DNA of 9,864 bases from a virus. Its lineage: Duplodnaviria > Heunggongvirae > Uroviricota > Caudoviricetes. The notes under the pieces were generated by a model that was not told the DNA's origin, ran no database searches, and saw only the letters and a program-made list of their open reading frames with translations. The stretch's first letter is position 1. Each line of letters opens with the position of its first letter. Below are positions 1-9,864 of the stretch, piece by piece. The translations under genes and the position numbers were made by a program. The stretch is from IMG/VR virus record IMGVR_UViG_2695420817_000017; one strand, written 5' to 3'.

Positions 1-381
1 TTACCGCCGCAGTCGTTCCGGCTTCTTCCACTGGTAAGTACTTTTCGCGCTCTCCCTCCGTTGTTGAGAACGGCGACGGTATGCCAGCAACTCAAGGACT
101 CTGGTTCGTATGTTGCGCATATCCACGCCGTTAAGCTCAATACCATCACGGCGCATCACCTCAGCAACAACACGCGCGTAATTTTCGGCTATCACGCTGT
201 CCGGCTGCGTGGCCTCCTGTTCGCCAGCCTGCTGGCTGATTCCGGTAATACTGCGGATTATCCCGAGCGCTTCGGTCTCGGTCATGGTCATGGTCATGGC
301 CTCCATAGTGATGGCGGGTCCTCCTTGTGGGGTGCCCTGCCACGGGGCGGGAGCATCGCGGAAAAAGGCTAGTTTTTGCAT
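1..381 (-). CDS. Hypothetical protein (maximal ORF 126 aa; start uncertain)
   Basis: Minus-strand ORF, ATG at 381..379, stop TAA at 3..1. No Shine-Dalgarno before the first ATG. Internal ATGs at 306 (AGGAGGA 12 nt upstream) and 291 (GGAGG 8 nt upstream) are better supported, giving 101 or 96 aa. Contains the in-frame (GGTCAT)x3 repeat encoding TMTMTM. No family recognised by eye. Confidence 0.45.
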   Translation of the reverse strand: MQKLAFFRDAPAPWQGTPQGGPAITMEAMTMTMTETEALGIIRSITGISQQAGEQEATQPDSVIAENYARVVAEVMRRDGIELNGVDMRNIRTRVLELLAYRRRSQQRRESAKSTYQWKKPERLRR

Positions 382-1089: not shown

Positions 1090-1260
1090 ATCCCAACTTG
1101 GTCAAGGTTTCAGGTTGGTGTGTTGGTGTTATCTTTCCCTTTTTATTCATGGAGATAGAGCAAACAACAAAACCACCACCACCACCCTGAAAAAGCTCAT
1201 AAATAGCGAAAAACCGCGAGGTCGCCGCCCCGTAACCTGTCGGATCGCCGGAAAGGACCC
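1090..1260 (-). other. lambda-type cos site: cosQ/cosN (about 1197..1260, 12-nt cohesive-end core at 1219..1230) plus divergent cosB-like region (1090..1196)
   Basis: Minus strand reads GGGTCCTTTCCGGCGATCCGACAGGTTACG|GGGCGGCGACCT|CGCGGTTTTTCGCTATTTATGA. From memory the lambda cos junction is ...CCGGTGATCCGACAGGTTACG|GGGCGGCGACCT|CGCGGGTTTTCGCTATTTATGAAAA..., so the 12-nt cohesive end is identical and the flanks nearly so. Similarity stops after TATTTATGA; the segment between cosN and the TerS start carries (ACC)5 and a tandem GTTGGTGT repeat instead of lambda R-sites. Confidence 0.8.
1172..1186. repeat. (ACC)5 trinucleotide tandem repeat inside the cosB-like region
   Basis: accaccaccaccacc read directly at 1172..1186, between cosN and the TerS start. 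A tandem octamer GTTGGTGT GTTGGTGT also lies at 1114..1129. Confidence 0.9.
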
Positions 1261-1286
1261 GCCAGCCAGAACGGGCCCTAATTTCA

Positions 1287-1670
1287 TCAACCAATCAGCT
1301 TATAGCGACCTTCCCGTGCATTGCGGCGTACACGCTCAATCTTGAGGCATAGCGCCGCATCTGGCTTTTTTGGGACAGATACGCGGCAATATTCAGAAGC
1401 GCGAGGGATATTATTTATCCAGTCAATTACTTCACTTAAATACCATGCCTTACGCCCCTCAGTAACCTGAACACGCTCAGGAAACTCACCACGGGCTTCA
1501 AGGTTTAACAAAGTTCGACGGCTAAGGGTGGTCAGTTCCATAACCTGGTTCATATCTACCAGGCGTTCGCTTAAGCGCATTTTGTCAGCAATAGCCTTTA
1601 ATTCCTCTACTGCTGGATCCGGATACATCATTTCGGCAATTGGCTTAAGGTCATTGTAATGATTCTGCAT
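1287..1670 (-). CDS. AlpA/excisionase-like HTH domain protein (127 aa), function unassigned
   Basis: ATG at 1670..1668 preceded by AAGGGGGAT, 4 nt after the decoration-gene stop, so probably co-transcribed. The central segment LTTLSRRTLLNLEARGEFPERVQVTEGRKAWYLSEVIDWI fits the AlpA/Xis (HTH_17/MerR-like) DNA-binding pattern. Ends ~55 bp before cosN. Confidence 0.6.
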   Translation of the reverse strand: MQNHYNDLKPIAEMMYPDPAVEELKAIADKMRLSERLVDMNQVMELTTLSRRTLLNLEARGEFPERVQVTEGRKAWYLSEVIDWINNIPRASEYCRVSVPKKPDAALCLKIERVRRNAREGRYKLIG

Positions 1671-1681
1671 TGTATCCCCCT

Positions 1682-2023
1682 TTACACACGAGCCAGCGGC
1701 TGAACAGAAATACCTGAGCCAACAAACGCGGCAACCTTTGCCGACAGTTCTTTTACAGACTCAGGCCAGTTCAGAGCATCAACATTTAAAACACCTGTCT
1801 TATAAACCTGTGCCTGTGTTTTTTTCGCTGTGTCGATTTGTACAGCGGAAACATAAACCGCTTTGCCTGCGCTCGTTCCATCCCATACCACTAGCGCACC
1901 AGTTGCATCTTCCTGCATCAGTGGCGTAAACGCAGGTATTACCCCTTTATTGGCTGAAAATATCCCCAGCGTAGTAACCAGTGCTTCAGTGCCAGACATG
2001 AGTTCAGTGTAATGAGTAGCCAT
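1682..2023 (-). CDS. Head decoration protein, lambda gpD-like
   Basis: 113 aa, ATG 2023..2021 preceded by AAGGGGGAG. AFTPLMQEDATGALVVWDGTSAGKAV...QVYKTGVLNVDALNWPE...AAFVGSGISV aligns by eye with remembered lambda gpD ([26 protein letters not shown]...TFYKSGTFRYEDVLWPE...TAFAGTAISIV). Directly downstream of the capsid gene. Confidence 0.8.
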   Translation of the reverse strand: MATHYTELMSGTEALVTTLGIFSANKGVIPAFTPLMQEDATGALVVWDGTSAGKAVYVSAVQIDTAKKTQAQVYKTGVLNVDALNWPESVKELSAKVAAFVGSGISVQPLARV

Positions 2024-2032
2024 TGCTCCCCC

Positions 2033-3079
2033 TTAGCCAATGCGAACGGTAACAAAACGATTGATGCGGGCCGGTATTGGCTGTGGTGCAGAGTGCGTTT
2101 GTACGTACTCAATAGCCGGATCACCAGGCACAATATAGTTTTTCGGTGCAAGTTCGGCTTTAGTCAGCCCCATTCGGATTAGCTCCGGATCCTGAATACC
2201 GCCATAGGCGACAATCCCCTGAAGAGCCGTATTGCCAAGCACCATCAAATCAGGATCAAGGAAATGTTTTTCAGTTCCGTCCTCGTCGGTATAACGTCCG
2301 CTGTAAACAACAATCGCAACATCGCCCATATACCCTTTAAAACTCACCGAATCACCAAGGTCTTTAAGGGCCGTTTCCAGTTCGGAATTAGAACCACGAC
2401 GGGTATCCAGAGCCTCTTTTATCGCTCTGAATGAACGGTATTTCTTCCATACATTACCGCCCATAATGATGATATTAGTGACGCCCTCACTAAATTCTGC
2501 GTAGCTCTCAATATCATCATTTGGATCAAAAGTTTCTTTATCCTTACCTGACCACTCAGCACCGCCAGACTGCGTGATAATATTTTGTGGTTTTATATTC
2601 CAGTCCAGTTCATAACGTTCAATACCATCGCCCTCAATGATATTTTTCCCCGTTGTGATTGCCTGAACAGCAAGCCATTCAATACGTGCACGTATAGCTT
2701 TAGCCTGATTTACAATCGCCTGTTTAACTTTAATATTACGCGCCCCAAAAGCATTGTATTGTTCAGGTGATACACCAGCAGGGCGCACAGCTAACTTATT
2801 TGGATCAATGCTGCTTTTCGGTTTCATATAGCCAGGGCGAATTGTTTTTGATTCGTATCCCTCATCTCGTGAAACTTTACTGCCCACCATAGGAGAGCAA
2901 AACGCCGCGATCGGGATATTTGGATCGTCGATCGTATCAAGAATAATGTCTCTCGATTCAAACATTACCGAGCGAGTGAAAAACAAACTGGTAAACAACG
3001 CATTTAATTTTTTTTGCACATCTTCAGCATTAGCCACCTGCACAAGCTGTGTAGGCGAATATAAATCAACCATACTCAT
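2033..3079 (-). CDS. Major capsid protein, lambda gpE family
   Basis: 348 aa from ATG 3079..3077 (MSMVDLY...); the track ORF extends further upstream, but homology favours the MSM start (lambda E begins MSMYTT). Long blocks match remembered lambda gpE, e.g. ITQSGGAEWSGKDKETFDPNDDIESYA...LDTRRGSNSELETALKDLG...GDVAIVVYSG...MVLGNTALQG. An alternative start lies at 3073. Confidence 0.85.
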   Translation of the reverse strand: MSMVDLYSPTQLVQVANAEDVQKKLNALFTSLFFTRSVMFESRDIILDTIDDPNIPIAAFCSPMVGSKVSRDEGYESKTIRPGYMKPKSSIDPNKLAVRPAGVSPEQYNAFGARNIKVKQAIVNQAKAIRARIEWLAVQAITTGKNIIEGDGIERYELDWNIKPQNIITQSGGAEWSGKDKETFDPNDDIESYAEFSEGVTNIIIMGGNVWKKYRSFRAIKEALDTRRGSNSELETALKDLGDSVSFKGYMGDVAIVVYSGRYTDEDGTEKHFLDPDLMVLGNTALQGIVAYGGIQDPELIRMGLTKAELAPKNYIVPGDPAIEYVQTHSAPQPIPARINRFVTVRIG

Positions 3080-3244
3080 CCTCTTTACATTCATTACAAA
3101 TAATTGTGAATATATTCTATTACCGATGTCTGCTATGCGAATACATGCAACCAAGTGCAATGTTGTATAAAATATGCCGTGACAACTTCAGTGCTGATAA
3201 TTCGTGTTAATGTATTTACTTCCTTTGGTCGGGATTTATGTAGC

Positions 3245-3954: not shown

Positions 3955-3994
3955 AGTTCAGATCTCAATTTTTCGTATATATATACAAAACAGT

Positions 3995-4309
3995 GCGGGT
4001 TATGCGGGTTAGCGGGTTATCTTCGCTTGCTAAGTATTTTTTATTCCTTAATATCAATACATTACAAAATTAACTGTTTACTGTTTAGCCGTGGCGTAAC
4101 CCGCAAAATGCTCAAAATAACCCGCAAACGGGGTTTTTTCTGCGGGTTACGCGTGGCTGTTTGCTGTCACTTCCTGTTATTCATCTGCGGGTTATAATCG
4201 CACTTTTGCGGGTTATAACTGCCGTTTTGCGGGTTACGTGCGGGTTATTGATTTCCTTTTTATTCATGCAGTTAATGCACTTATACACAGAGTAACCCAC
4301 ATAACCCGC
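3995..4309. repeat. Iteron array (8-bp GCGGGTTA, about 13 copies in both orientations) flanking an AT-rich segment: candidate replication origin
   Basis: Direct copies at 3995, 4004, 4012, 4142, 4187, 4208, 4229, 4240; inverted copies (TAACCCGC) at 4097, 4118, 4302 and a variant TAACCCAC at 4293. AT-rich stretch 4020..4096, plus GTATATATATAC at 3974..3985. Begins 24 bp after the primase/helicase stop, the position PICI/P4-type origins occupy. Confidence 0.75.
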
Positions 4310-4332
4310 AACTTTTCACCTCACACAGGGGG

Positions 4333-6456
4333 TTAATCTTCTGCCTCAGGCTGGAACATCAGCACGTAAAAAACATGCTGCTTCCCCCCAATTTTGCCGA
4401 GAGCCTTTTTCTTGTAACGGCGATCGTTACCCGCTTCCAGCATTCCGGCAGCACTCAACGCGCGGGCAAAGTGGGACGGGTTAAATCCCTGTGCGATCTC
4501 CCCCTCAAACACATGAGGAAACGTGTAAAAACGGAACTCATCATCTTCATTTCTGATACTCCCCTTTCTGTATCCGGCAAGGTCTTTAATCGGTAAATCA
4601 CGTTCATCACTGTTTGGGTAAGGAAGGTATCGACTGAACCCGAACGACGACAAAAACGCCTCAGCCTGTTCAACCATCTGTTTAAATTCCCTGTTACCCG
4701 TGCCGAACTCCTTCACCCAGGCATTAAAGTTATGCTGTATTGCGTCCCGGCATTCCTGCGCGGCCCAGCCAGTTACATGACCGGAAAGCACAAGCGCGGC
4801 CTCCAGTATGGCGAAACGCTCACCCACGCGGTGGACTTGCTCGCCGTAGCTCTCCGGTATCAGGTTGCGCCACCGTTCGCGGCATTCCCTTACCGTATCC
4901 TTTGCCTCCTGCTGGTGGCCTGCCAGCCATTTAACCCACTCACGACCCGCTGCCCCGTGATTTTCTGTCCAGGCATCCTTTAACGCGTCTGCGTGCGCCT
5001 TTCCGGTGCTGTATTCGTGAAAGTGCGTGGCTTTTTCCATCGGAACGTTAAGCAGGCGGACAAGCTGCCCCGCTTTGACTTTTATCCCCTCCGTTTTGAG
5101 GAATGTCTCAACGTCCATTTCTCCGGTGCTGATTGCCACCGTGCGCCAGTGTTTTATCTCCCGGTTGCCGCCGTCCTTCGCCCCCTGTAATTTCCCGGAA
5201 CCGTTAAACAACGTATAGGCTGACGTGGACACCTCCCGCGCGTTTCCGGCCTGGCCTATTTCATCCAGGGGTAACAGCCCGTCGTTGTGCGCCTCTGCCT
5301 CGTTAGCGATACCTAACGCTGTGCCGTACCAGGTCAGCCGTTGTGCGTCCGGCTCTCCCCATAAACTTGATGCGATGTTCTGCGTGGTGGTTTTCCCTGC
5401 CGATGACTGTTCGAAAAGATGTACCCCAAAGCCGTCAGCACCAACAAGGCCAATCAAAGGTGCTGCCAGTGACGTGGCAACACCCAGCATCATGGACGGA
5501 TTGCCACCAGCCAGCCGCGCCACGCAGTCGCGCCAGCCCTCCGACGTACCCGCAACCGAATAGCCATTAACAGTGGCACTTTTTCCGGTAAACAGGATCG
5601 GTTTTTCAGAATCACCAATGATTGAGCCGTCCGGCATGATATACGCGCCAAAATGCCAGCCCGTTGTTGTGCTTAGCTGCCATTCCTCATGGCTTCCGCT
5701 TAACTGCATCCAGTCAGCCAGGATAGCCCTGTATTTGCCGTTTGTTGTCACGTTCAGCCCGTGATCTTTAAGCAACCGCCAGCCGTCACGGTCGCCAATG
5801 CCACCACACGGGATCGCCATTGTGATGACTTCATGGTTTGCTAATTTTTTCCAGCGCATCACGCGGTAATGCTCTTTACCGATCGTCCCCGTTCCCAGTA
5901 GTTCAAGCGGAGAACATAACCACGTCTCAGGCCGGATAATTTCGCCTGACTGCTTATCCACTTTGGGCGTTACCCAGAAAACACCATCGACGCGACTTTC
6001 AACGCGGGGCTTTAATTCATCATCCTGATAGCATGGCTCTTTTTTCTTTACAGGCAGTTCAACTACCTTTTTCTTTTCCGCCTGCTCTGCCCGTTCACGT
6101 TCCAGATATTCGCGCCAGTTCTCCCGTTTCTGGCTGTGCATTCCTTCAGGGTAATAATCAGCATCCCTGACACCTGCCGCTGCCAGTTTCTGCCCGATGG
6201 TATTAACAAGCCCCGGACGCAATAACCCCGCCTGATAGAGACGCACGCGATAGCGTCCGTCCGGTACGATTTGCAGGTTGTCCAGTTCGGCAAGTTGTTG
6301 CTCTCCAAGCCAGACAGGAGGCACGTTATCGCCAGCCAGTCGCCCGTCCTGTTCCTGCCACTGCTTCGCATGTGCCCACGCATCACTACCCGCAAAAATG
6401 ATGACTTCCGTCATTTTGTCACGCGGCTGGTGTTTTAAATTTGGCGCTTTTTTCAT
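4333..6456 (-). CDS. Primase/helicase-family replication protein (pri-rep, P4 alpha-like role), 707 aa
   Basis: ATG 6456..6454 with GGAGAGAG upstream; the track ORF starts 15 nt further up at GTG. Walker A motif FEQSSAGKTT mid-protein. Size, position after alpA and adjacency to the iteron array fit a satellite primase/helicase. Exact family not verifiable without a search. Confidence 0.85.
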   Translation of the reverse strand: MKKAPNLKHQPRDKMTEVIIFAGSDAWAHAKQWQEQDGRLAGDNVPPVWLGEQQLAELDNLQIVPDGRYRVRLYQAGLLRPGLVNTIGQKLAAAGVRDADYYPEGMHSQKRENWREYLERERAEQAEKKKVVELPVKKKEPCYQDDELKPRVESRVDGVFWVTPKVDKQSGEIIRPETWLCSPLELLGTGTIGKEHYRVMRWKKLANHEVITMAIPCGGIGDRDGWRLLKDHGLNVTTNGKYRAILADWMQLSGSHEEWQLSTTTGWHFGAYIMPDGSIIGDSEKPILFTGKSATVNGYSVAGTSEGWRDCVARLAGGNPSMMLGVATSLAAPLIGLVGADGFGVHLFEQSSAGKTTTQNIASSLWGEPDAQRLTWYGTALGIANEAEAHNDGLLPLDEIGQAGNAREVSTSAYTLFNGSGKLQGAKDGGNREIKHWRTVAISTGEMDVETFLKTEGIKVKAGQLVRLLNVPMEKATHFHEYSTGKAHADALKDAWTENHGAAGREWVKWLAGHQQEAKDTVRECRERWRNLIPESYGEQVHRVGERFAILEAALVLSGHVTGWAAQECRDAIQHNFNAWVKEFGTGNREFKQMVEQAEAFLSSFGFSRYLPYPNSDERDLPIKDLAGYRKGSIRNEDDEFRFYTFPHVFEGEIAQGFNPSHFARALSAAGMLEAGNDRRYKKKALGKIGGKQHVFYVLMFQPEAED

Positions 6457-6752
6457 TTCTGCTCTCTCCACGCGGCAATCATGTTTTTCAGTTCCTGTAG
6501 TTTTTTATCCACATTCACACGTGACACATGGTTTTTTCTGGAAAGCGGGATTTCCCGCCTGAATCTGCTAATAAAGATCTCCACGTTCAGCGAACTATGA
6601 AATGAATAGCCATCACGAATAAAATACACACGGTCAAACATCAGTTCTTTTACCGTTACTCTGTTACCGTTCTTATCCAGATAAATAGCGCCGGGGATAA
6701 TTTTGGGGTGTGCATAACCGCTGGCAGTCAAGCCAGATAAATATGTTCTCAT
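6453..6752 (-). CDS. Hypothetical basic protein (99 aa), AT-rich cassette gene 2
   Basis: ATG 6752..6750 with GGGGAT upstream; stop TGA overlaps the primase ATG (ATGA). Net charge about +9 by residue count. Visibly AT-richer than the flanking primase gene. Confidence 0.55.
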   Translation of the reverse strand: MRTYLSGLTASGYAHPKIIPGAIYLDKNGNRVTVKELMFDRVYFIRDGYSFHSSLNVEIFISRFRREIPLSRKNHVSRVNVDKKLQELKNMIAAWREQK

Positions 6753-7996: not shown

Positions 7997-8206
7997 TTAC
8001 ACTGCCTTACCTGAATTAATGCGATCCCGGCTTTTAACCCATTCCATAACCTCGGACAGCAGCCACCCTACAGAACGACCGCCCAGATTAAGACGTGACG
8101 GAAAGCTCCCTTTTTTCTCCAGTTCGTAGCGTGTAGTGCGACACACTCCAGTTAACTTACGACATTCATCCTCACGGATTACGCGATCTTCATTTATTTC
8201 ACGCAT
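7997..8206 (-). CDS. alpA: AlpA-family transcriptional regulator (phage/island HTH activator), 69 aa
   Basis: ATG 8206..8204; the track ORF extends to a GTG at 8293 through AT-rich, low-complexity sequence that looks like promoter DNA. ECRKLTGVCRTTRYELEKKGSFPSRLNLGGRSVGWLLSEVMEWV matches the AlpA signature (...FP.P.KLGGRSV.W...EV..W.). Classic position between int and the replication genes. Confidence 0.85.
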   Translation of the reverse strand: MREINEDRVIREDECRKLTGVCRTTRYELEKKGSFPSRLNLGGRSVGWLLSEVMEWVKSRDRINSGKAV

Positions 8207-8625
8207 ACAAAAACCTACATAAAAATTACGTATATAAACTTTTCTCTTAGCTGTAGATATATGAGATCGGATATTACTTAGATTCTTTTTCACCTCTTAA
8301 ATTAAAAACACAACCATGCTAAAGGCTTTGTTCGCTAAGGTTCGTAGAAGCTCGTTAGTGTTTAAAATCGTGTCACGAGTTTTTAAGCGACGCAACAAAA
8401 AATGTCGTCATTTGGCATGACACCTTAATTACCTCATTAAAAACAAATAGATAAACCATCAGGTGTTGGAACAATCAAGAAACAGAGAATAAGAACTCAG
8501 AAGAAGACATTTCAATTTTTTTCGATAGTTGACACATATAAAGAGAAGATATTTGCAGATATTCCCCGATATTCTAAGATCTATTCACGGCTGTAATCTC
8601 TTAAAGAAAAAACAGCCGTAATTTG
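8207..8625. promoter_or_regulatory. AT-rich intergenic region between int and alpA (probable alpA promoter/control region)
   Basis: About 420 bp of visibly AT-rich non-coding DNA with no credible ORF. Contains inverted repeat ACGGCTGT (8587..8594) / ACAGCCGT (8612..8619) just 3' of the int stop. No promoter hexamers assigned with confidence. Confidence 0.4.
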
Positions 8626-9864
8626 TCAAGAATTTTGGGGGTAAATTCGCGGGGTCATAACAACGATTTTTTCATCATTGTTCTGGAGAAGCTCGAGACG
8701 GTCTACCCATAGATTAAGAGCATCACGTTTTGCATCAAGGTAGCGGGAGTGGTTATAGACTCGTTGCATCCCTGGCATCTGGTGGGCTGTAAGCTGCTCG
8801 ACAATATGCGGATCCACGCCTAAATCGTTCAGCATGGTTGTAAATGTGTGCCGGATATCGTGTAACGTCCAGGGGGCTTGATTAATTCGTCTGTGCGCTG
8901 TTCTTCCGTACTCTGCTACCGAAGATTGTCCTTTCAGTTCACCAAGCAATAAGCCTGAGTGTCTGTTCTGCTCCACCAGTTGCGTGACGAACGGCAAAAT
9001 GCTTTCCGGTATTGGCCTGAATATGGCGACCTTCGTTTTGCTGTGCTCCTTCGGTACTGTCCAGAGCATTTCTTTAAAATCCCACTCCTGCACCTCAGAG
9101 CGCCTTAGCTCAGTGGTACGGCATCCAAAAACAATCAGGAGGCGAATTAGGGCGCTGTAGTATGGCGGGAATATTTTGTCATCCAGGGCGCGGAGTAATT
9201 CCCCAAGCTCCTTATTTGTTAGTACGCGCTCGCTCACTTCTGCTTTTTTTCCCACATCACCGACAACCATATCATCAAGAACGTTGCTGATTGCGTATCG
9301 TCGTTTTCGGCAGTACTTAAGCGCCTGTTTGCATACCTGTAGCAAAAATCCGGCAGATACAGGGCTTCGCTTTGCCATCTGGTCAAAACATGCCAACCAG
9401 TGCCGTAGCTCGCATTTTTCCAACGGCAAAGCGCCAATCTGGCTGATTATGTGTTTATTGATCCGGCTTTTCAGTGATTCGTAGTCAGTGCGCTTTTCCT
9501 TTGCATACGATTCAAGCCAGTAAGTGAGCGCTTCCTTAACTGTCACGGGGGCTAACGCATCCTGTACAGCACGATTAAGCTCATAGCGCGGATTTTTCCC
9601 CTCAGCCAGCCAGGCGCGACACTGTGCTGCTTTTTCCCTGGCTGCTTTCAGGCTCAGATCGGGATAATTGCCCAGTCTCAGACGTTCCGGTGATACCTGC
9701 CTACCAGTTCCGGCCCTGTAAGTGAAATACCAGGTTAACAGGCCGCTGGTGGAATGTCTTACGCTAAGATTGCCACCGTCATTAAAAAAGGCGTTTTTTG
9801 TGGTTGGTGATCCGCTTAATTTTCGTAAAAGAGTGTCGCTAAGTCTATGAATTGCGCTGCTCAT
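8626..9864 (-). CDS. int: Tyrosine recombinase / integrase, P4-type (412 aa)
   Basis: ATG is the last three bases of the window (9864..9862), stop TGA 8628..8626. N-terminal region resembles the P4-integrase arm-binding domain. C-terminus carries the catalytic pattern HDIRHTF ... HQMPGMQRVYNHSRY (H-x-x-R and nucleophile Tyr). Whether the true start lies beyond the window cannot be excluded. Confidence 0.9.
   Translation of the reverse strand: MSSAIHRLSDTLLRKLSGSPTTKNAFFNDGGNLSVRHSTSGLLTWYFTYRAGTGRQVSPERLRLGNYPDLSLKAAREKAAQCRAWLAEGKNPRYELNRAVQDALAPVTVKEALTYWLESYAKEKRTDYESLKSRINKHIISQIGALPLEKCELRHWLACFDQMAKRSPVSAGFLLQVCKQALKYCRKRRYAISNVLDDMVVGDVGKKAEVSERVLTNKELGELLRALDDKIFPPYYSALIRLLIVFGCRTTELRRSEVQEWDFKEMLWTVPKEHSKTKVAIFRPIPESILPFVTQLVEQNRHSGLLLGELKGQSSVAEYGRTAHRRINQAPWTLHDIRHTFTTMLNDLGVDPHIVEQLTAHQMPGMQRVYNHSRYLDAKRDALNLWVDRLELLQNNDEKIVVMTPRIYPQNS

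Follow-up and report, generated by a model that had tools for sequence, protein, structure and literature searches.

The locus examined here raises the question of what a second gene of the AlpA type does as the last gene before the cos site of a phage satellite. The window, i.e., the whole stretch of 9,864 nucleotides that was analysed, carries such a gene, here called AlpA2. The first-pass annotation offered two roles for it, a packaging-specificity factor resembling Rpp or a regulator of late genes. We conclude that AlpA2 is real and conserved and gives an E. coli phage satellite a second predicted DNA-binding protein of the AlpA family. AlpA2 is most likely a regulator of the capsid genes and not a packaging factor, because it travels as a unit with these genes and with a promoter bearing phased repeats.

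The island and its genes

The window is a complete phage-inducible chromosomal island (PICI) of ~10 kb between cspD and clpS, with 100% identity to the insertion in E. coli AR_0077. It belongs to the EcCICFT073 kind of Gram-negative PICI described by Fillol-Salom et al. (PMC6092414, PMC6739421). All of its real genes lie on the minus strand, as follows.

8626-9864, minus strand: tyrosine integrase gene (int)
7997-8206, minus strand: canonical alpA (AlpA1), adjoining int; a paralogue of AlpA2 with another recognition helix
Between alpA and the primase gene, minus strand: Icd-like remnants, then a DUF4222 gene
4333-6471, minus strand: DUF927 primase gene
Between the primase gene and ssb, minus strand: ORF of 80 aa
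3292-3715, minus strand: ssb, frameshifted
2033-3073, minus strand: lambda gpE-like major capsid protein (MCP) of type A, first gene of the capsid operon
1682-2023, minus strand: lambda gpD-like head decoration protein (Dec), second gene of the operon, with its stop 11 nt before the AlpA2 start
1287-1670, minus strand: AlpA2, the gene under study, encoding a 127-aa AlpA-family winged-HTH protein
1185-1262, minus strand: helper-like cosQ-cosN segment
543-1088, minus strand: Nu1-like small terminase (TerS), at the position of Rpp in EcCICFT073; varies independently of AlpA2
1-381, minus strand: last small ORF, annotated as 94 aa at 1-285

The frameshift in ssb is given by RefSeq, and related islands have an intact copy. 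The last ORF is kept at the end of all these islands, shares 72-78% identity with its EcCICFT073 counterpart (c1504 by position), and has no matches other than PHROGs of unknown function. Immediately 3' of the primase gene, at least 12 TGCGGGTTAY iterons in both orientations surround an AT-rich stretch (3990-4311), and this cluster is very likely the replication origin of the island.

AlpA2 is a conserved member of the AlpA family

The AlpA2 ORF runs from an ATG start to a TGA stop and has a strong Shine-Dalgarno sequence (AAGGGGGA), 11 nt past the stop of the decoration gene. Residues 36-85 match Phage_AlpA (PF05930; E = 1.3e-8, score of 35 bits with a cutoff of 21, spanning positions 2-51 of the 51 in the model) in Pfam, and residues 11-109 match PHROG 2790 (E = 1e-47), which is annotated as 'excisionase and transcriptional regulator'. 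Both matches bear out the AlpA-type HTH protein that had been recognised from the sequence at 1287-1670. PF05930 is also the precomputed Pfam assignment of all full-length AlpA2 homologues. The usual context of PF05930 is a short protein encoded next to int, from which AlpA2 departs in its 127 aa, its extra helices and its distance of ~7 kb from int; its membership stands despite this atypical context, which the Pfam definition does not take into account. Among solved structures, its best relative is the AlpA/excisionase of GIsul2 (PDB ID 8c3t; E = 2.9e-10, 43% identity over 53 residues). A PADLOC search gave marginal matches at the HTH level (E ~3e-3) and no defence-system component, an NCBIfam search gave nothing meaningful, and the Pfam and PHROG profiles gave no match to the Nu1/TerS family. 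RefSeq labels the protein as an HTH or AlpA-family regulator and nothing more, and our literature search found no published description of the second AlpA gene of these satellites.

Judged by its substitution pattern, AlpA2 is a functional gene under strong purifying selection: dN/dS was 0.07 against one E. coli orthologue, and dN in the HTH between genera was 0.025-0.064, with synonymous sites saturated. Among 5426 complete genomes of E. coli, 408 contain the gene. About 100 homologues are spread across Enterobacterales, nearly all of 127 aa, and their conservation reaches past the HTH to a 'WINNIP' motif and the basic C-terminal helix. A scan of genome contigs, in a collection with one genome per species, detected four loci. 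A tblastn search of 50,697 phage records returned zero matches; AlpA2 is a gene of satellites and not of phages.

An AF2 model of AlpA2 was built with 84 sequences and had a mean pLDDT of 80, with values of 89-92 in the residue blocks 41-80. The model places a wHTH core at residues 36-86, consisting of a strand (37-38), two helices (40-47 and 51-60), two further strands (67-70 and 73-77) and a last helix (78-86), i.e., a winged helix of the order beta-alpha-alpha-beta-hairpin-alpha. Outside the core it predicts two N-terminal helices (4-15 and 19-33) and the basic C-terminal one (105-120). A Foldseek search using the model revealed the closest similarity with 8c3t (TM 0.87, rmsd 0.9 Å), followed by RdfS, BldC, CarH/MerR domains and Pukovnik Xis. 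A TerS domain (7lw0) and an entry from the Rpp paper (6hn7) were weak matches with E of ~0.1. Among viral proteins, the structural neighbours were PrtN activators, AlpA-like regulators and excisionases. The head-to-tail binding of Xis, RdfS and BldC to arrays of direct repeats agrees with the phased array found before the MCP gene (see below). BldC and PrtN act as transcription factors, and small wHTH activators of the PrtN type work on phased 'P box' repeats.

The region between AlpA2 and cos

AlpA2 had been described as the last gene before cos, ~55 bp from cosN, and this holds: 58 nt separate its stop codon from the cosN 12-mer GGGCGGCGACCT, which lies on the minus strand at 1228-1217. The surrounding cosQ-cosN segment of 78 nt (1262-1185) has 93-95% identity to lambda-like phages. 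The accompanying statement that AlpA2 closes the capsid operon is correct as to its place before cos, but the following hairpin is weak, and terS and one more ORF continue on the same strand.

1255-1278, minus strand: weak hairpin GGGCCCG...CGGGTCC between the AlpA2 stop and cos, with its 3' arm within the cosQ segment

The terminator scan of the window did not call this hairpin a terminator, and other islands have a clear intrinsic terminator in its place. The scan flagged cosN itself (1217-1232, minus strand), where CGGGGCGGCGACCTCG is joined by a T-rich run. This terminator-like hairpin is probably incidental, because lambda has the same sequence.

As a packaging-specificity factor, AlpA2 would bind near cos and/or partner with TerS and direct terminase to the island cos. 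We regard this role, which the first-pass annotation had favoured with Rpp in mind, as very improbable. It would agree with the position of AlpA2 as the last gene before cosQ-cosN in every island, and with the broad MerR/excisionase-like fold that its wHTH shares with the DNA-binding domains of Nu1 and Rpp. However, we found no sequence relation to either packaging protein: hhalign of the AlpA2 family profile gave a probability of 0.1% for RppA and 0.5% for the island TerS. AlpA2 is also on the wrong side of cos. Rpp, whose HTH is N-terminal, sits downstream of cos in the position of terS (PMC9026076), and in CFT073 rppA lies at L010:25660-26094, past cos at 25559. AlpA2 lies upstream of cosQ, and the slot downstream of cos in the window is filled by a full Nu1-like TerS.

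Furthermore, AlpA2 occurs with at least three packaging solutions, as judged from modules mapped in 16 loci and from reading their cos regions. It is found with a TerS of 84-100% identity or with a TerS of 54-56% identity. In two islands (L005 and L014) it is found with a lambda-like cosB bearing R3/R2/R1-like elements and with neither TerS nor Rpp, and in Serratia it is found with an unrelated 208-aa gene. The cosB sequence tracks TerS and not AlpA2. No conserved DNA motif was found between the AlpA2 gene and cosQ, and this spacer is not conserved across genera. A tie between AlpA2 and the island TerS was considered separately and rejected: TerS-like genes occur in 766 genomes against 408 with AlpA2, TerS is also paired with the unrelated c1501 gene in the EcN and O157 islands, and some AlpA2 islands have no TerS.

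The corresponding slot of EcCICFT073 is informative in this respect. We located this island in the CFT073 genome, where c1499 is the MCP gene and c1500 the decoration gene; the order is then c1500, a 137-aa ORF (c1501, judging from its place between c1500 and c1503), cos and rppA (c1503). No homology of AlpA2 to c1501 was detected, and c1501 itself had no Pfam or NCBIfam match. EcCICFT073 islands carrying c1501::tetA, or with cas9 or melA in place of c1498-c1501, were still transferred, and therefore the slot before cos is not needed for packaging there. The mixing of modules, the c1501 slot, the negative profile comparisons and the unconserved spacer thus leave no evidence in the sequences for a role of AlpA2 at cos.

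Several other features were seen around cos. In cosB, an inverted repeat that includes a (GGT)n run (1108-1120 and 1180-1192; TTTCAGGGTGGTG ... CACCAACCTGAAA on the minus strand) begins ~46 nt from the left end of cosN, and Murialdo and Feiss reportedly predicted an R3-like site at this position. The repeat is probably the recognition site of the island TerS, because it is kept in all islands with the TerS type of the window, whichever gene precedes cos. A Rpp-type island has a (GGT)n-type run in the opposite orientation (CACCACCACCAC). Three islands with the other capsid type, type B (see below), contain the cosN 12-mer a second time, in inverted orientation, at L010:26309 (EcCICFT073), L011:6734 (EcN) and L012:6737 (O157). 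This copy lies between rpp/terS and the last ORF (c1504 by position in CFT073) and is absent from the window. In the two islands with a lambda-like cosB (L005:8400-8700 and L014:10450-10660), cosN is followed by this cosB and then by an ORF resembling the lambda gpI-type tail-assembly protein, an identity assigned by eye. The ORF is full (199 aa) in L014 only; L005 has its first codons and no ORF of at least 40 aa. Such islands would package in a third way, by directly mimicking the cos of the helper.

AlpA2 is linked to one type of capsid module

AlpA2 follows a type-A MCP (80-100% identity to that of the window) and Dec at every locus examined. These loci come from E. coli at four integration sites, from Kosakonia, Kluyvera, Superficieibacter, Cedecea, Buttiauxella, Scandinavium and Serratia, and from one metagenomic lineage. 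The synteny MCP-Dec-AlpA2 holds in Serratia at 53% identity, as well as in Buttiauxella, Scandinavium and the metagenomic lineage. In E. coli, 395 genomes contain the block of promoter, MCP, Dec and AlpA2 at ≥80% coverage and 408 the AlpA2 gene itself, and the next tier of matches was the type-B MCP at ~65% identity.

The type-B MCP, which is 54% identical to type A, is always accompanied by c1501 and c1498, and the capsid operon of type-B islands contains no HTH gene. It starts from a near-consensus promoter, TTGCTC-17-TATAAT (L010:23330-23460, with equivalents in L011 and L012). A strong leader hairpin with a 13-bp stem and a T-run follows directly after the promoter, before c1498. From its layout this arrangement looks like control by antitermination, unlike the repeat-bearing promoter of type A.

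The other modules of AlpA2 islands vary. Their integrases share 23-100% identity and their primases are of different kinds (DUF927 versus D5_N/DUF5906). The prophage genes flanking embedded AlpA2 islands also differ, being lambda-like tail genes in L004-L007, and baseplate J and P2-type tail protein I in L022 and L144. Across the loci compared, AlpA2 is independent of the packaging, integration and replication modules, whereas the gene, the capsid type and the repeats are strictly linked. Many AlpA2 islands (L004-L007, L013, L016, L022 and L144) are embedded in the capsid gene E of a prophage and correspond to the helper-embedded PICIs of PMC10111431.

A phased repeat array overlaps the capsid promoter

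When the region upstream of the MCP gene was aligned across islands, it had a common order of a hairpin, phased direct repeats and a promoter. The last two elements are the following in the window.

3135-3170, minus strand: four direct hexamers, TTATAC-N4-TTGCAC-N4-TTGCAT-N4-TCGCAT, in exact 10-bp phase; candidate AlpA2 operator
3114-3141, minus strand: sigma-70-like promoter of the capsid operon, with -35 TTCGCA, a 16-nt spacer and -10 TAGAAT

The last repeat overlaps the -35 element, the array extends ~35 bp upstream, and the whole site lies ~60-90 nt before the MCP start codon. Such a hexamer array is expected by chance 0.01 times per window. Other genera have a conserved extended -10 (TGnTAnCAT) at the position aligned to the promoter of the window. 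Every AlpA2 island examined contains the phased array once, always upstream of the MCP gene, and across lineages it consists of three to five phased TTGCAY-like hexamers. The array is absent from type-B islands. A scan of IMG/VR gave 20 type-A islands among the 120 matches listed; the other 100 were unrelated, including 10-bp tandem repeats, and had no lambda-type capsid gene, so that no helper-phage target appeared among the matches listed. In the 19 of the 20 type-A matches with both coordinates, the match started 87-101 nt upstream of the start of the MCP alignment, mostly 87 nt.

The recognition helix of AlpA2 is SRRTLLNLEARG in five of the six AlpA2 loci compared, and SRRTLINLEARG, with a conservative L-to-I change, in that of Kosakonia (L013). 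In the most divergent lineages the recognition helix and wing and also the repeat hexamers are altered. The repeats are TTGTAC in Cedecea, TTATAC in Buttiauxella and Scandinavium, and TTAGAC or TTGTGC in Serratia; the recognition helix is SRRTLLDMEERG in Buttiauxella and SRQTILDMEARG in Serratia. This co-variation is seen in two or three lineages and parallels their overall divergence. We also considered the TTGCAY repeats as replication iterons and rejected this, since the iterons of the origin are TGCGGGTTAY next to the primase gene and the primase varies while the TTGCAY repeats stay constant.

The canonical alpA gene has its own repeats

A canonical alpA gene had been noted ~6 kb away, with AlpA2 as a second, distinct module. 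The canonical gene at 7997-8206 is indeed next to int and ~6.3 kb from AlpA2, and the two proteins share 29-32% identity in the HTH. In every complete island seen, the canonical alpA adjoins int, and islands with constant TTGCAY repeats have at least three different recognition helices in their canonical AlpA. The intergenic region between int and alpA contains repeats of its own.

8548-8574, minus strand: phased triple repeat GAATATC-N3-GAATATC-N3-AAATATC in the int-alpA intergenic region, 10-bp phase

None of 200 shuffles gave such a repeat. Elsewhere the int-alpA repeats differ with the type of int and alpA1, being six copies of ACAACG in CFT073 and four of AACCAK in L003. The triple repeat of the window is a candidate for AlpA1 sites or Int arm sites. 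Sites near AlpA genes in these islands thus seem typically to consist of phased direct repeats, and the repeats of the int-alpA1 region suggest that the AlpA family uses such a site architecture here.

AlpA2 as a candidate regulator of the capsid operon

Of the two roles first proposed for AlpA2, the comparative evidence favours the late-gene regulator, through the linkage of the gene to the capsid type and the repeats. Our preferred reading, to which we give nearly even chances, is that AlpA2 is a module-specific, autoregulatory transcription factor of the late (capsid) operon of the satellite. The type-A module would then comprise a repeat-bearing promoter, the gpE-like MCP, the gpD-like Dec and AlpA2. 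AlpA2 would bind the phased TTGCAY-like hexamers (3170-3135) head-to-tail, as proteins of the Xis, BldC and RdfS types do, and from there set the transcription of its own operon in a feedback loop. We somewhat favour activation of the operon over negative autoregulation; AlpA2 would then act as a late switch that keeps the capsid genes expressed after early read-through has yielded a little of the protein. That AlpA2 binds the repeats is inferred from their co-occurrence in a block that is inherited as a unit, and linkage alone could produce such a co-occurrence. More tentatively, AlpA2 and its operator may form a self-contained late circuit that switches on the capsid and Dec genes with no need for either the Q antiterminator of the helper or the canonical AlpA.

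Homology to a characterised excisionase, which the first-pass annotation had expected to speak against its proposals, was found at the domain level (8c3t), but the context argues against an excisionase role. A second excisionase would act as a directionality factor with the integrase of the island or helper at att sites. The closest solved homologue, GIsul2 AlpA, promotes excision on over-expression, and the label of PHROG 2790 includes this function. Nevertheless, AlpA2 lies ~7 kb from int while the canonical alpA adjoins it in every complete island, and L002 has no TTGCAY array near the island ends. The DNA-contacting residues of AlpA2 are near-invariant (apart from the L-to-I change in Kosakonia) over at least four unrelated or distant integrases and att sites, the latter being cspD, tRNA-Pro, prophage gene E and fis. 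This argues against a directionality factor, which should co-vary with the integrase and att, and we consider the role improbable. Alternatively, AlpA2 might act in trans on helper or host genes, in interference, manipulation or as a 'moron', with the array being bound by the canonical AlpA, the CII of the helper or a host protein. Regulators that target the helper, such as P4 delta/epsilon and PLE CapR, are common in satellites (PMC10111431). Related islands hold host regulators of the PerC type in the same region. The pattern TTGC-N6-TTGC is that recognised by lambda CII, and the array fits it. However, CII does not account for the TTATAC, TTAGAC and TTGTAC repeats or for arrays of three to five copies, and the spacing to the conserved extended -10 is unlike that of CII promoters. 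The repeats are constant across different alleles of the canonical AlpA, and among the IMG/VR matches listed the array occurred solely in type-A islands. We view action on helper or host genes as unlikely.

A lambda-like capsid gene, puzzling and apparently dispensable, is present in most E. coli-type PICIs; in EcCICFT073, deletion of the capsid and decoration genes altered neither transfer nor interference (PMC6092414). A dedicated AlpA2 with its operator would offer a direct handle on when, and by which signal, satellite capsid genes are expressed, and on the consequence of that expression for helper and satellite particles. The specificity of packaging in these islands lies downstream of cos, in TerS, in Rpp or in a cosB that mimics that of the helper, and not in the gene upstream. 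For the engineering of PICIs as delivery vehicles, MCP-Dec-AlpA2 is a probable self-regulated, replaceable cassette. If the self-contained late circuit is true, the capsid modules of Gram-negative PICIs would be exchangeable cassettes, each with its own regulatory logic. The type-B module of EcCICFT073 would do the same task by a promoter and a leader terminator, and AlpA2 would be a handle for finding the purpose of satellite capsid genes.

Comparison with known systems

The alpA of EcCICFT073 and the canonical alpA of the window belong to the same Pfam family (PF05930) and the same kind of element as AlpA2. EcCICFT073 AlpA is a transcriptional activator that acts on island genes as well as on its own promoter (PMC6092414). 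AlpA2 differs from the canonical PICI AlpA in its recognition helix and wing, in keeping with the 29-32% HTH identity given above, and in its size, with 127 aa and extra N- and C-terminal helices compared with ~70 aa. It lies in the late zone after the capsid genes and not beside int, and it is linked to the type of capsid and not to that of the integrase. GIsul2 AlpA (8C3T), the closest solved structure, is likewise short, adjacent to int and a promoter of excision, and lacks the extensions of AlpA2.

Rpp (RppA/RppC) of E. coli PICIs resembles AlpA2 as a small wHTH protein of the same broad fold class encoded beside the island cos. In Rpp, however, the wHTH is N-terminal (residues 1-64) and is followed by helices a3-a6, the dimerisation helices, whereas the HTH of AlpA2 is central (36-86). 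The two proteins are on opposite sides of cos and have no detectable sequence relation. Rpp binds the helper TerS (PMC6739421), a feature that nothing suggests for AlpA2. The definition of Rpp also includes a block of plaque formation by the helper. Proteins of the Xis, RdfS, BldC and PrtN types are structural neighbours of AlpA2 without significant sequence similarity outside the fold, and have unrelated targets and biology. The 'AlpA' antiterminator of P. aeruginosa was considered as a model and rejected, since it is larger and has a 21Q-like fold with a C-terminal HTH (DNA-contacting residues 128-142); in our reading it shares only its name with the small PF05930 proteins.

Vis of P4, like AlpA2, is a satellite-encoded member of the AlpA family. 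In the work of Polo et al. 1996 and Cali et al. 2004, Vis is said to aid excision and to modulate the late promoters PLL and Psid. Psid drives the capsid-size genes of P4, which to our knowledge carries no capsid gene. P4 has a single AlpA-family gene, located between its early and late regions, whereas the island in the window has two paralogues, between which the roles are apparently split.
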